Source: a plasmid. From it: a stretch of DNA of 43,660 nt. The position numbers were made by a program. Location of the stretch: the sequence record NZ_MN082782.1, one strand, 5' to 3'. Shown piece by piece: positions 3,001-9,000 of this stretch. Numbering within the stretch: the first letter of the stretch is position 1; every line of letters starts with the position of its first letter.

Positions 3001-6000
3001 CAAGCAACTGCCAGCCGTGCGCCTGGATGCCAACGACCCCGCCGTCAAGGCTTACCCCCACGAAGAAGCCATGCAGGTGGTGCAGGAACGCATCGACCGG
3101 GCAAAAGGCAAGCCATGCTAATCGGTTATGCGCGCGTTTCCACGCAGGATCAGAACCTTGAGCTGCAACGTGAAGCCTTGGCCAAGGCCGGATGCCAAAA
3201 GGTCTTCGAGGATAAGGTGAGCGGCACACGGGCAGACCGTCCGGGCTTGGGCAAAACGCTCGAAATGCTGCGTGAGGGCGACACCTTGGTCGTCTGGAAG
3301 CTCGACCGGCTGGGCCGCTCGGTCAAGCAACTTGTCGATCTGGTCGGCGAGCTGCACAAGCAAGGCGTCCAGTTCAGGAGCCTCACCGACTCCATCGACA
3401 CCGGCACGCCGTCCGGGCGCTTCTTCTTCCACGTCATGGCCAGCCTTGCCGAGATGGAACGTGAGCTGACCGTCGAGCGCACCCGTGCCGGACTGGCGGT
3501 TGCCAAGCAACTCGGCCGCAAAGGGGGCCGCAAGCCGAAGATGACCGACAGTAAGATCGAGTCGGCCAAGAAACTGCTGGCTAGCGGCGTGCCGCCGCGG
3601 GACGTGGCCAAGAACCTCGGCGTGTCGATTCCGACGCTGTATCGCTGGGTGCCGGCGTCGCTACAAATCTAATGCTTATGAAATTTCAATGTCATTTTCT
3701 CTCTGTCCCTGTGGCGATACTCGGATGTGTTGGCCTCATCTGCACATCCGCATATGCCATGGATACGGGAATCCTCGACCTCGCTGTAACCCAAGAGGAG
3801 ACCACGCTTCAGGCTAGGGTCGGAGTGGCGGTGATCGATACGGATTCCGGCCTGACGTGGCAGCATCGTGGCGACGAACGCTTCCCGCTGAACAGCACGC
3901 ATAAAGCCTGGCGGTTGCAGAAGCTGAGTGCAACACGGTTACTGGATTGAAGCAGGTGCATCATGCTGCAACGCCACTACTTCTGTCATGACCTCAATCG
4001 GGCATTTCCAATTGAAGCGCTTGCGCGGTCGGATGTTCAGTTCGTAGGCAATGGCATCCAACTGCTCCTGGCTGTACACCGACAAGTCCGTGCCCTTGGG
4101 CAGGTACTGGCGGATCAGGCCGTTGATGTTCTCGTTGCTGCCGCGCTGCCAGGGGCTGTGTGGGTCGCAGAAGTAGATCGCCACACCGGTCTTCTGGGTG
4201 ATTTCCGCGTGCCGCGCCATCTCTCGCCCCTGGTCGTAGGTCATGCTCTTGCGTACAGCCAGCGGCATGCGGTTCAGCGCCGCGCTGAAGCCCTCCACCG
4301 CCGAGGTCGCCGTCGCATCGTTCATCTTCGCCAGGATCAGGTAGCCGCTGGTGCGCTCGACCAGGGTGGCTACCGCCGAGGCGTTGGCCTTGCCCTTGAT
4401 CAGATCGCCCTCCCAGTGACCGGGCATCAGGCGGTCTTCGATCTCCGGTGGGCGTACGTGGATGCTGACCATGTCGGGGATCTGGCCACGTCGATCCACC
4501 CCGCCGGAGCGCGGCCGGCGGGTAGTCTTGCCCTGCCGCAGACAGATGATCAGCTCCTTGCGCAGCTCGCCGACCGGCAGGGCATAGATCGCGTTGTAGA
4601 TTGTCTCGCGGCAGACGTAGGCGTCTTCGAAGCTTGGGGATTTCATGGTTCGCAGCTTGCCGGCAATCTGCTCGGGAGAAAAGCGCTGTCGCAGCAGGTG
4701 GGCGACCAGCTCGAACAACTCGTTGCCGGGCACCAGCCGTTTTGCGGGTCGACAGACCACGCGGCGTGTATGCATCAAGCGCTGGGCATCGTCTGCAACG
4801 TACTCGCCTTGAGCATTCCGGTTGCGCCGGATCTCACGGCTGACCGTCGAGGGGCTGCGGTTCATCAGCCGGGCAAGCCTGCGCTGGCTGAAGCCATTGC
4901 ACAGGCCGATCTGGATCGTGACGCGCTCTGTGGCGCTGAGTTCGTGATAGGACATGGGGCAACACCTTACCGAAATGGTCGGGTGTTGCACTCAGTTTTT
5001 GCGGCCGCCCCTTTTCCTGCGCGGCCGTTCTGGCCCAGGCCGACCGCCACAAGCTGAACCTGGAGCAGGCGATACCGATCGAGCGCACAGCGCTGGTCAC
5101 ATACTCACCCGTGACGGAAAGGGTGCCACCTGGCGGCACGCTGACCCTGCGTGAGCTGTGCAGGGCCGCCGTCAGTATCAGTGACAACACAGCGGCCAAT
5201 TTGGCGTTGGATGCAATCGGCGGGGCACGGACATTCACCGCGTTCATGCGGTCTATCGGTGACGATAAGACACGCCTGGATCGGCGAGAACCCGAACTCA
5301 ACGAGGCCACGCCGGGGGATGCACGCGACACGACAACGCCAATTGCGGCAGCGCGGAGCCTGCAAACACTGTTGCTCGACGGTGTCCTCTCCGCTCCGGC
5401 TCGGAACGAACTGACACAATGGATGCTCGGGGATCAAGTTGCCGATGCCTTGCTACGCGCTGGCTTGCCGAGGGATTGGCAAATTGCGGACAAGTCGGGA
5501 GCAGGTGGTCACGGATCACGTTCCATAATCGCCGTTGTCTGGCCGCCCAAGCGTTCAGCCGTCATTGTGGCGATCTACATCACCCAAACCGCAGCGTCTA
5601 TGTCGGCAAGCAACCAGGCGGTGTCCAGAATCGGATCAGCCTTAGCAAAGGCGTTGCAATGAGCGTTCCCGCCTCAGTGCACACTTAGCGTGCTTTATTT
5701 AATGAGATGGTCACTCCCTCCTTCCCGGTACTATGCTGAGGATAGGCTTTCATTCGGAGAACTATCATGGAAAACATTGCGCTCATTGGTATCGATCTGG
5801 GTAAAAACTCTTTCCATATTCATTGCCAAGATCGTCGCGGCAAGGCTGTTTACCGTAAAAAATTTACACGGCCAAAGTTAATCGAATTTTTGGCGACATG
5901 CCCCGCTACAACCATCGCAATGGAAGCCTGTGGTGGCTCTCACTTTATGGCACGCAAGTTGGAAGAGTTGGGGCATTTTCCTAAGCTGATATCACCACAA

Positions 6001-9000
6001 TTTGTCCGTCCATTCGTTAAAAGTAACAAAAACGACTTTGTCGACGCCGAAGCTATTTGTGAAGCTGCATCGCGTCCGTCTATGCGTTTTGTACAGCCCA
6101 GAACTGAATCTCAGCAGGCAATGCGTGCGCTGCATCGTGTCCGTGAATCCCTGGTTCAGGATAAGGTAAAAACAACCAATCAGATGCATGCTTTTCTGCT
6201 GGAATTTGGCATCAGCGTTCCACGAGGAGCTGCCGTTATTAGCCGACTGAGTACCCTTCTTGAGGACAATAGTTTGCCTCTATACCTCAGCCAGTTATTG
6301 CTGAAATTACAACAGCATTATCACTATCTTGTTGAGCAGATTAAAGATTTGGAATCCCAGTTGAAACGAAAGTTGGACGAAGATGAGATTGGACAGCGCT
6401 TGCTGAGCATTCCCTGCGTCGGAACACTGACAGCGAGTACTATTTCAACTGAGATTGGCGACGGGAAGCAGTACGCCAGCAGTCGTGACTTTGCGGCGGC
6501 AACAGGGCTAGTGCCTCGACAGTACAGCACGGGAGGTCGGACGACATTGCTGGGAATTAGTAAGCGAGGTAACAAAAAGATCCGAACTTTGTTGGTTCAA
6601 TGTGCCAGGGTATTCATACAAAAACTGGAACACCAGTCTGGCAAATTGGCCGATTGGGTCAGGGATCTACTGTGTAGGAAAAGCAACTTTGTCGTCACTT
6701 GTGCTCTGGCAAACAAGCTGGCCAGAATAGCCTGGGCCCTAACGGCACGACAGCAAACTTATGTAGCATAACGGCAGAAATACACCGGTTTAAAGAATCA
6801 CTGATCTGGTTTTGCGAATACTGATATTGATGATACTAACGGCCCACCGGCCTGTTGAGGAACCTGTAAAACGGAAAGGCTCATTGAAGCCGTATATTTT
6901 CTGGAGGTTCATCAGGCGCGGAACTCATCGAGGCGCGGGAATAAAATCCCATTCAGACGCCGGATAGATTCAAGCAAGCCAAGGCGGTTGCAGAAGCTGA
7001 GTGCAACACGGTTACTGGATTGAAGCAGGTGCATCATGCTGCAACGCCACTACTTCTGTCATGACCTCAATCGGGCATTTCCAATTGAAGCGCTTGCGCG
7101 GTCGGATGTTCAGTTCGTAGGCAATGGCATCCAACTGCTCCTGGCTGTACACCGACAAGTCCGTGCCCTTGGGCAGGTACTGGCGGATCAGGCCGTTGAT
7201 GTTCTCGTTGCTGCCGCGCTGCCAGGGGCTGTGTGGGTCGCAGAAGTAGATCGCCACACCGGTCTTCTGGGTGATTTCCGCGTGCCGCGCCATCTCTCGC
7301 CCCTGGTCGTAGGTCATGCTCTTGCGTACAGCCAGCGGCATGCGGTTCAGCGCCGCGCTGAAGCCCTCCACCGCCGAGGTCGCCGTCGCATCGTTCATCT
7401 TCGCCAGGATCAGGTAGCCGCTGGTGCGCTCGACCAGGGTGGCTACCGCCGAGGCGTTGGCCTTGCCCTTGATCAGATCGCCCTCCCAGTGACCGGGCAT
7501 CAGGCGGTCTTCGATCTCCGGTGGGCGTACGTGGATGCTGACCATGTCGGGGATCTGGCCACGTCGATCCACCCCGCCGGAGCGCGGCCGGCGGGTAGTC
7601 TTGCCCTGCCGCAGACAGATGATCAGCTCCTTGCGCAGCTCGCCGACCGGCAGGGCATAGATCGCGTTGTAGATTGTCTCGCGGCAGACGTAGGCGTCTT
7701 CGAAGCTTGGGGATTTCATGGTTCGCAGCTTGCCGGCAATCTGCTCGGGAGAAAAGCGCTGTCGCAGCAGGTGGGCGACCAGCTCGAACAACTCGTTGCC
7801 GGGCACCAGCCGTTTTGCGGGTCGACAGACCACGCGGCGTGTATGCATCAAGCGCTGGGCATCGTCTGCAACGTACTCGCCTTGAGCATTCCGGTTGCGC
7901 CGGATCTCACGGCTGACCGTCGAGGGGCTGCGGTTCATCAGCCGGGCAAGCCTGCGCTGGCTGAAGCCATTGCACAGGCCGATCTGGATCGTGACGCGCT
8001 CTGTGGCGCTGAGTTCGTGATAGGACATGGGGCAACACCTTACCGAAATGGTCGGGTGTTGCACTCAGTTTTTGCGGCCGCCCAATTTATCGTCAAAATC
8101 GGTGTTGCAAAAACGGGAGTGACCATAGATTCCGTTTTCTGAGACGACCCCTTACTGAGCGACTTGCGACGTTGGCCGTCGAGCTGAACGACAAGGCGGT
8201 CAAGGCTGCTGAGCGCCGGGTCGCCGAAGTGTTGCGCACTGCTGGTGAGCAGCGTGAGCAGGCGGAGCGGGAGCTGGTCGATGCCGCACAGACGGTTGAC
8301 GAGCTGGAGACACGGTTGGACGAGTCGCAGGCGGAAGTTGAATCGCTGGAAAGGTGGCTCAGTGAGGCTCAGTCTCATGGGCAGGCGCAGGCTGTCGAGC
8401 TGGCCCAGTTGCGTGAGCGTCTGGTTGCCACTGAGCAAGCTGCACGGGCCACTGCTGATGCCCACGAAGCCGTGCGCTCGGAGCTGGATGCTGCCCGTCG
8501 CGACGCAGGCGTGAAGATCGAGGCGCTGCGGGATGAGCTGGCTCAGTTGCGTGAGCGATTGGCGGCGTCTGAACAAGCGGCCAAGGTTGCAGCGGAAACT
8601 CACGCTCGCGAGCTGGAGCAGGCGCACTCTGAAACGAAGACGGTACGGGCCGAGCTTGATGTGGCTCGTCGTGAGGCGGCAGAGAAGATTGAGGCGCTGC
8701 GAGGTGAGTTGGCCGAGCAAAAGGCCAAAGCCGCTGCTGATGCTCAGGCACACGCCGATTACCGGGCGCGGATGGAGCAGGATGCAGCGCGGATTACCGA
8801 GCTGCTGGGGCAGGCAAAAGAGGCTCAGGAGGTTGCCCGGCATGATGCGTCAGAAGCCCGTGAATCTGCTGCAAAGCTGGCGGGTCAGTTGGAGGCTGTA
8901 CAGGCTCAGAATGCCACTCTACTTGTGGCTGTCCAGCAGAGGTCTGATCGCGGTTCGGGTGGCAAATGAGTCAAGGATGTGCGTCGGGTGATGTGAGGCT

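Follow-up and report, generated by a model that had tools for sequence, protein, structure and literature searches.

The 43,660-nucleotide stretch of plasmid DNA recorded as NZ_MN082782.1 (hereafter, the window) carries at positions 5684-8151 a nested structure that we take, with a probability of about 95%, to be the right-hand 38-bp terminal inverted repeat (IR) of an ISPa38-family Tn3 transposon, interrupted twice in succession by insertion sequences (ISs). The first to arrive would have been IS4321, whose DEDD transposase is presumably guided by a seekRNA encoded in the element's 3' non-coding region; it would have entered the IR between CTTTATTT and TCCGTTTT, at a single preferred position, in a fixed orientation, and without duplicating its target. 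IS1394, which encodes a DDE transposase, would then have entered IS4321 after base 1282 by ordinary transposition, duplicating CAA, and an IS1394-associated deletion would have removed the transposon's other IR along with the 3' end of tnpA. No observation contradicts the anatomy of 5684-8151.

The reconstructed terminal repeat and the transposon boundary

When the whole window was searched with 2 or 3 mismatches allowed, CTTAGCGTGCTTTATTT occurred once, at 5684-5700, and TCCGTTTTCTGAGACGACCCC once, at 8131-8151, both on the plus strand; the matches expected by chance, estimated from shuffles, were 0.01 and 0.00, respectively. Joined, the two segments make up a 38-bp Tn21-type IR, CTTAGCGTGCTTTATTTTCCGTTTTCTGAGACGACCCC. 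Read from the inside of the transposon to the outside, the former provides the inner 17 bp of its right end and the latter the outer 21 bp; the outer GGGG terminus falls at 8151, and the transposon interior lies to the left. The identical 38-mer constitutes both intact terminal IRs of the ISPa38-family transposon in the Pseudomonas aeruginosa plasmid p60512-NR (locus 1565-1602 and 10132-10169), where the element is bounded by the 5-bp duplication TGCTG; the intact IR of p60512-NR is a direct empty-site control for the insertion of IS4321. The IR, which starts with GGGG, is of the Tn21 sequence type, and the same halves adjoin IS4321 beside merR and beside tnpA of mercury-resistance transposons; in all, the inner half is found next to IS4321 in six other contexts. 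The reconstructed repeat also agrees at 38 of 38 positions with what we take to be the Tn21 IRtnp, an agreement that serves as a lead only.

The assignment of 8151 as the outer boundary of the Tn3-family element is supported by a break in homology. Specifically, homology to the Klebsiella plasmids that bear the transposon ends at 8151/8152 (with one fortuitous base in two plasmids), and from 8151 onward the sequence is homologous to the kfrA region of p60512-NR instead. In the contig of pPae-13, a related plasmid described below, the whole right end of IS4321 likewise continues without a gap through the IR half into the flank with kfrA. An earlier, sequence-only reading of this DNA had proposed both that the two halves form a Tn21-type IR and that the transposon's right boundary lies at 8151, and both proposals are borne out by the exact, unique matches to the intact IRs of p60512-NR and by the exchange of homologies at that point. 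The two halves now stand 2.4 kb apart, and the split IR would therefore be unusable as a substrate for a Tn3-family transposase.

The outer insertion, IS4321

Judged by its sequence, the outer element is IS4321, a member of the IS1111 family, and not IS5075. Once the nested segment 6983-8085 is taken out, positions 5701-8130 amount to 1327 bp, in agreement with the length given in the sequence-only reading after removal of the nested element and its duplication. The resulting sequence shows 100% identity to a copy without any interruption that lies in the same IR, adjacent to the same bla gene, on the Klebsiella pneumoniae plasmid LC623933. R751 is the plasmid in which IS4321 was defined, with the prototype copies IS4321L/R, and the present element differs from the R751 copy at 10133-11459 by 1 mismatch in 1327 bp (99.92%), its identity to the other R751 copy being 96.8%. 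Only 93.0% identity was found to a copy annotated as IS5075 by its depositors. Furthermore, the transposase (Tnp) agrees at 334 of 334 residues with the ISfinder reference for IS4321, as given in supplementary file 6 of PMC11187229. The single mismatch to R751, the identical Tnp, and the distance from the copy annotated as IS5075 are the reasons for the name used here. The previous description of the element as IS5075-like thus captured its membership in the IS4321/IS5075 pair, and missed that it is IS4321 itself.

Bases 1-1282 of IS4321, which comprise the left end, tnp, and most of the 3' non-coding region, occupy 5701-6982 on the plus strand (100% identical to LC623933, locus 6102-7383), and bases 1283-1327 occupy 8086-8130, likewise on the plus strand and likewise 100% identical to LC623933. 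The latter segment forms the right end; it includes a -35 box, TTGCAA, at 8105-8110, followed at 8115-8126 by the right subterminal IR. The tnp gene at 5767-6771 (plus strand) is intact and encodes a DEDD (RNA-guided) transposase of 334 amino acids, which scores 341 bits against NF033542, the model of IS110 family RNA-guided transposases (cutoff, 140 bits), and contains the PF01548 and PF02371 domains. The left subterminal IR, ATGGTCACTCCC (5707-5718, plus strand), is complementary to 8115-8126 at all 12 of its positions, consistent with the mutually inverted ends that had been noted before. Following the tnp stop codon at 6771, the non-coding region totals 256 bp, with 211 bp to one side of IS1394 and 45 bp to the other. 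The boundary between IS4321 and the IR is ambiguous by one T, such that 17+21 and 16+22 splits of the IR are equally compatible with the sequence, and the extensions beyond the subterminal IRs measure either 6 and 4 bp or 7 and 3 bp, according to where this T is placed. If the convention of a 7-bp left extension for IS1111 elements is followed (PMC11187229, section 7), the IS spans 5700-8129 and the 16+22 split applies.

With respect to its target, IS4321 sits between CTTTATTT and TCCGTTTT of the IR in a fixed orientation and without a duplication, and the junctions CTTTATTT/AATGAG on the left and ATAGAT/TCCGTTTTCTGAG on the right are common to seven IR contexts, including the present one. The other six comprise two copies in R751, those in LC622104 and LC623933, and those in two IncHI2 plasmids, in which IS4321 lies beside merR and beside tnpA. 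According to two papers that both cite Partridge & Hall 2003 (PMC8269217; PMC11187229), IS4321 and IS5075 target the IRs of Tn21-family transposons at one preferred position. The IS110-family element was therefore correctly taken to be IR-targeting, since it is a member of this pair at the canonical site and in the canonical orientation. The present case has in common with the known insertions in Tn21-family IRs the element itself, the insertion point, the orientation, the absence of a duplication, and the same 12-bp subterminal IRs. It differs in that the IS4321 copy is itself split by IS1394 after base 1282, and in that its host is an ISPa38-family transposon and not a mercury-resistance transposon of the Tn21/Tn1696 type.

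In the two IncHI2 plasmids (NZ_LC511997 and NZ_MZ750395, locus 1480-2870), the same IS4321, outer IR half, and flank, at identical plasmid coordinates, lead to merR in one case and to tnpA in the other. Comparison of the two sequences points to inversion or exchange by recombination between IS4321 copies located at the two ends of a Tn21-type transposon.

The nested insertion, IS1394

Relative to uninterrupted IS4321, the present copy contains 1103 extra bases, corresponding to an element of 1100 bp plus a 3-bp duplication that is visible as a blastn overlap. The element lies at 6983-8082 on the minus strand, has imperfect terminal IRs of 27 bp (85% complementary), and is the second of three IS1394 copies in the window, being identical to the one at 3910-5009. 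It is also 100% identical over 1101 bp to more than 15 copies on P. aeruginosa plasmids that are annotated as "IS30-like element IS1394 family transposase". Its transposase gene (7012-8064, minus strand; 350 amino acids) scores 336 bits against NF033563, and the product possesses HTH_38 (PF13936) and rve (PF00665) domains. The triplet CAA, present once in uninterrupted IS4321, flanks the element on the left at 6980-6982 and on the right at 8083-8085. On this comparison, the nested element is identified as IS1394, and its arrival as a simple insertion with a 3-bp CAA duplication. The sequence-only reading had already recognized a nested IS30 element; the IS30 family membership stands, and the AA duplication then assigned to it has to be extended to CAA.

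The possibility that copies 1 and 2 of IS1394 form a composite element or are the products of recombination was considered and rejected, because each retains its own matching 3-bp duplication, as is expected of simple insertions. In all three IS1394 insertion sites, TTT(T) directly follows the triplet on its 3' side, with CCT/TTTCC at copy 1 (window 3907-3909 and 5013 onward), CAA/TTTAT at copy 2 (6980-6982 and 8086 onward), and AGG/TTTTG at the third site (pPae-13, locus 34483-34490). This shared feature may reflect a target preference of IS1394.

The sister plasmid and the order of events

The plasmid pPae-13 has been aligned to the 43,660-bp plasmid pPA2047 (MN082782) in published work (PMC8034096; PMC10134989), and the window, which has exactly this length, is very probably the whole of this plasmid, also written pPA_2047. 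That it is circular and is the same molecule as pPA_2047 is drawn only from the published size and from the relationship with pPae-13. The two plasmids come from the same P. aeruginosa clone, sequence type (ST) 654, with pPA_2047 originating from Argentina and pPae-13 (MT949191) from Chile. Window positions 8082-42560 are 100% identical to pPae-13 over 34,479 bp, including Tn4401b-blaKPC-2. The two ends of the pPae-13 contig consist of the same 77 bases in inverted orientation, made up of the outer IR half and the right end of IS4321 (1-76 and 34958-35034). Both ends read AGCAAGCCAATTTATC, that is, they are uninterrupted at the CAA site, and for this reason both transposon IRs of pPae-13 carry IS4321, in neither case with IS1394 at that site. 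The termination of the contig 7 bases past the IS1394 site might be mistaken for an effect of IS1394; this was rejected, as the 77-base repeat matches a k=77 assembly overlap and IS4321 is uninterrupted there. Compared with pPae-13, then, the present plasmid has gained IS1394 within IS4321, while pPae-13 keeps 472 bp of backbone and a second IR interrupted by IS4321.

The joint between bla, the IR, and IS4321 is 100% identical in the Klebsiella plasmid as well. Because the sister plasmid and Klebsiella both carry IS4321 uninterrupted at the same site, these comparisons indicate that IS4321 came first, as an old and inherited insertion, and that the insertion of IS1394 into it is recent and specific to this plasmid lineage. 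In keeping with this order, the particular nest was not seen elsewhere in the collections searched. Specifically, no PLSDB record covers at least 80% of the whole IS4321::IS1394 region, and the IS4321/IS1394 junction was absent from PLSDB (80-bp probe), the GTDB representative genomes, and the JGI metagenomes (exact 32-mer). Three P. aeruginosa plasmids in which 6 extra bases match to the left of IS1394 were considered as further carriers of the nest, and were rejected since the alignment stops before IS4321.

The host transposon as a dead remnant

To the left of the interrupted IR, the transposon contains a class A beta-lactamase gene, a serine recombinase gene, a nucleotidyltransferase/DUF86 pair, and tnpA on the minus strand. 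The latter gene (3-2237) is truncated and encodes only residues 1-745 of 972, with 96% identity to the ISPa38 TnpA by tblastn. The truncated product scores 901 bits against NF033527 over profile positions 2-730 of 954, and its DDE domain breaks off at profile position 168 of 389. Neither a complete second IR nor a further pair of IR halves was found anywhere else in the 43,660-nucleotide window. The third copy of IS1394 (42561-43660, plus strand) is inverted relative to copies 1 and 2 and ends exactly at the window's end. In a circular molecule it would lie directly against the truncated tnpA, and its flanks would be AGG and CGC, which do not form a duplication. Missing relative to pPae-13 are the 472 bp of backbone (pPae-13, locus 34486-34957), the left IR with its IS4321, and the last 227 codons of tnpA. 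From these comparisons, the left end of the transposon was apparently lost through an IS1394-associated deletion.

With TnpA truncated and the other IR missing, the host transposon is a dead remnant, whatever the state of the IR at 5684-8151. The suggestion that IS4321 probably immobilises that end is reasonable and, for this copy, moot. The sequence-only reading had spoken of a Tn21-type transposon whose other end lay outside the window. The Tn21-type IR was rightly recognized, and the element itself is of the ISPa38 family and not Tn21. As for the other end, the presence of one IR in the window, the cut of TnpA at residue 745 of 972, and the match between the window's length and the published size of pPA_2047 speak against its lying outside; with the window taken as the whole plasmid, that end has most probably been deleted.

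ISPa38-family transposons with IS4321 in one or both IRs are also found in Klebsiella michiganensis pBD-50-Km_2, where both IRs are occupied, and in K. pneumoniae pmS2H5-GES24_1 (LC623933). The present element has its IR sequence in common with these copies and with p60512-NR, and IS4321 occupies the same site as in the Klebsiella copies, the IRs of p60512-NR being intact. Likewise, the passenger module (nucleotidyltransferase/DUF86, serine recombinase, and class A bla) is 99.8-100% identical to that of LC623933. In contrast to its relatives, the present transposon has a truncated tnpA with about 92-93% DNA identity, lacks the left IR, and has had both bla and IS4321 split by IS1394. Against the Klebsiella copies of the ISPa38 family, identity breaks at 2254-2283, from 92-93% on the tnpA side to 99.8-100% on the passenger side (2283-3909 and 5010-6982). 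This break marks the transposon, by alignment, as a mosaic that perhaps recombined near the res region.

Predicted guide RNA and mobility of the interrupted IS4321

Elements of the IS1111 family need a seekRNA that derives from the non-coding region downstream of tnp (PMC11187229, sections 7-9), in which the segment that pairs with the top target strand is followed on its 3' side by the one for the bottom strand (section 9 of the same paper). In IS4321, a candidate guide region was located at 6868-6901 on the plus strand, where two matches to the target strands are separated by a small hairpin. The first match, AAAACGGAAA (6868-6877), reproduces the bottom-strand sequence that spans the insertion point, and the second, TATTTTC (6895-6901), the top-strand sequence that spans it. 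Matches of 10 and 7 nucleotides, respectively, occurred together in 7 of 200,000 shuffles of the IS4321 non-coding region. The order of the two segments is that described for IS1111-family seekRNAs (PMC11187229, section 9), and the predicted fold places both in one internal loop, flanking the small hairpin. We therefore predict that 6868-6901 is the seekRNA guide region of IS4321. An Rfam scan of intact IS4321 (LC623933, locus 6000-7500; E<=1) returned one chance snoRNA match and no seekRNA or bridge-RNA family.

Between the predicted guide segments and the IS1394 insertion site downstream of them there are 81 bp, and a further 45 bp separate that site from the right end of IS4321. Joining the right end to the left end produces TTGCAA-17 nt-GATAAT, which fits the promoter formed at the junction of circular IS1111-family intermediates (PMC11187229, section 7). 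The tnp gene is intact, and the element retains its predicted guides, the subterminal IR and the target-derived flank on each side, and the -35 box at the right end. This arrangement closely resembles the cargo constructs of ISEc11 (Siddiquee et al. 2024, PMC11187229, Fig. 5). In both cases, foreign DNA is found 45-46 bp from the right end, past the region of the guide RNA, where it disturbs neither the right subterminal IR nor the -35 box. ISEc11 carried an engineered 745-bp catA1 cassette and was shown to move, whereas the present insertion, in IS4321, is a natural one of 1103 bp. Because ISEc11 remained mobile with 745 bp of cargo at a distance of 46 bp from that end (PMC11187229, section 11), it is plausible by analogy, at odds near even, that the interrupted IS4321 may still excise and transpose with IS1394 as its cargo. 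That it is in fact a still functional, RNA-guided composite of 2.43 kb is a more demanding claim, and we consider it doubtful. If it were correct, the composite could leave its site as a circle and carry IS1394 to the specific target position in the IRs of further Tn21-family resistance transposons, providing a natural example of an IS1111-family element with another IS as cargo.

Alternative explanations

For the mobility of the interrupted IS4321, the principal alternative is that the arrival of IS1394 inactivated the element, leaving a fossil incapable of excision or transposition and an IR that is permanently broken; we would give this about an even chance. IS1111-family elements cannot do without their 3' non-coding region (PMC11187229, section 7), and in IS4321 the sequence from base 1138 to the right end is nearly invariant relative to IS5075, with 3 differences in 190 bp against roughly 8% in tnp, which suggests constraint up to and past the insertion site. 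The sole difference near that site, on the other hand, is base 1283, directly adjacent to it. The minimum free energy fold of the non-coding region pairs segments on either side of the IS1394 site, and a long seekRNA precursor could reach past base 1282 and be disrupted. Set against inactivation are the distance of IS1394 from the predicted guides, its proximity to the right end, and the intact state of tnp, both subterminal IRs, the flanks, and the -35 box; in ISEc11, not only was cargo tolerated at 46 bp, but the fragment that supplied the RNA in trans ended there too (PMC11187229, sections 7 and 11). The failure to find any second copy of the composite in PLSDB, the GTDB representatives, or the JGI metagenomes weighs against continued mobility.

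With regard to the structure and its history, it is highly improbable that the nest is an assembly artefact in which three identical 1.1-kb copies of IS1394 were misplaced within a 43.7-kb plasmid and IS4321 is really intact. It is true that at either end of the transposon in pPae-13, a plasmid of the same clone, IS4321 has no interruption at the site in question, and that related plasmids have been reported to differ by multiple rearrangements (PMC11448201). Copies 1 and 2 of IS1394, however, are each flanked by a perfect 3-bp duplication of a triplet that is single in uninterrupted relatives, which a misjoin would not yield, and the junctions are perfect to the base; pPae-13 is a short-read contig whose ends are a 77-base repeat overlap, and it is uninformative about pPA_2047. 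It is unlikely, to a lesser degree, that the two IR halves derive from different transposon ends and were joined by recombination between IS4321 copies, in which case 8151 would not be the original boundary. The IncHI2 pair described above, with the same outer half and flank joined through IS4321 to merR or tnpA inner halves, demonstrates that such exchanges occur. Two further observations point the same way. The transposon flanks in pPae-13, AAGAT and TTACT (window 8152-8156), do not form a 5-bp duplication, and kfrA lacks approximately its first 78 codons by comparison with p60512-NR (locus 11075-12127). Given these mismatched flanks and the truncated kfrA, the present position of the transposon is not a simple transposition footprint, and the IR halves may have been brought together by IS4321 recombination or by deletion instead of one original insertion. 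Still, the halves match the IRs of the closest intact relative, p60512-NR, exactly at 38 of 38 positions, the missing duplication is equally explained by an adjacent deletion, and an origin from different ends would leave the structure at 5684-8151 unchanged. The double interruption of a single right-hand IR continues to be the reading that we favor.

Significance

All components of the nest are known elements behaving in known ways, and no new kind of element or mechanism is involved. The targeting of Tn21-type IRs by IS4321 has reportedly been known since 2003, from the work of Partridge and Hall, and the nesting of one IS within another is commonplace. The main value of the analysis lies in a correct annotation and in the reconstruction of the plasmid's history. 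For example, the outer boundary of an ISPa38-family remnant that can no longer move can now be fixed on a blaKPC-2 plasmid of clinical relevance from P. aeruginosa ST654. An inherited IS4321 insertion can also be told apart from three recent, lineage-specific IS1394 events, namely, the insertions into bla and into IS4321 and a third event linked to a deletion. Finally, the interrupted IS4321 offers a small natural test case for the tolerance of cargo by IS1111-family elements.

Other features of the plasmid

Copy 1 of IS1394 (3910-5009, minus strand) lies within the class A beta-lactamase gene (3678-3909 and 5013-5662), which it splits after about codon 78, with a CCT duplication. Because the gene is split here and intact, with 100% identity, in K. 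pneumoniae LC623933, it is regarded as inactivated in this plasmid. At the family level its best match is CARB/PSE/RTG-like, and it scores below the cutoff of every named family.

Beyond the transposon boundary, a complete Tn4401b is present at approximately 9700-19700 and is 100% identical to that of pPae-13 and of many Enterobacterales plasmids. Within it lie the ISKpn6 tnp gene (10065-11384), blaKPC-2 (11634-12515, minus strand), istAB of ISKpn7, and the Tn4401b tnpA (14810-17839, minus strand) and tnpR (17949-19664) genes.

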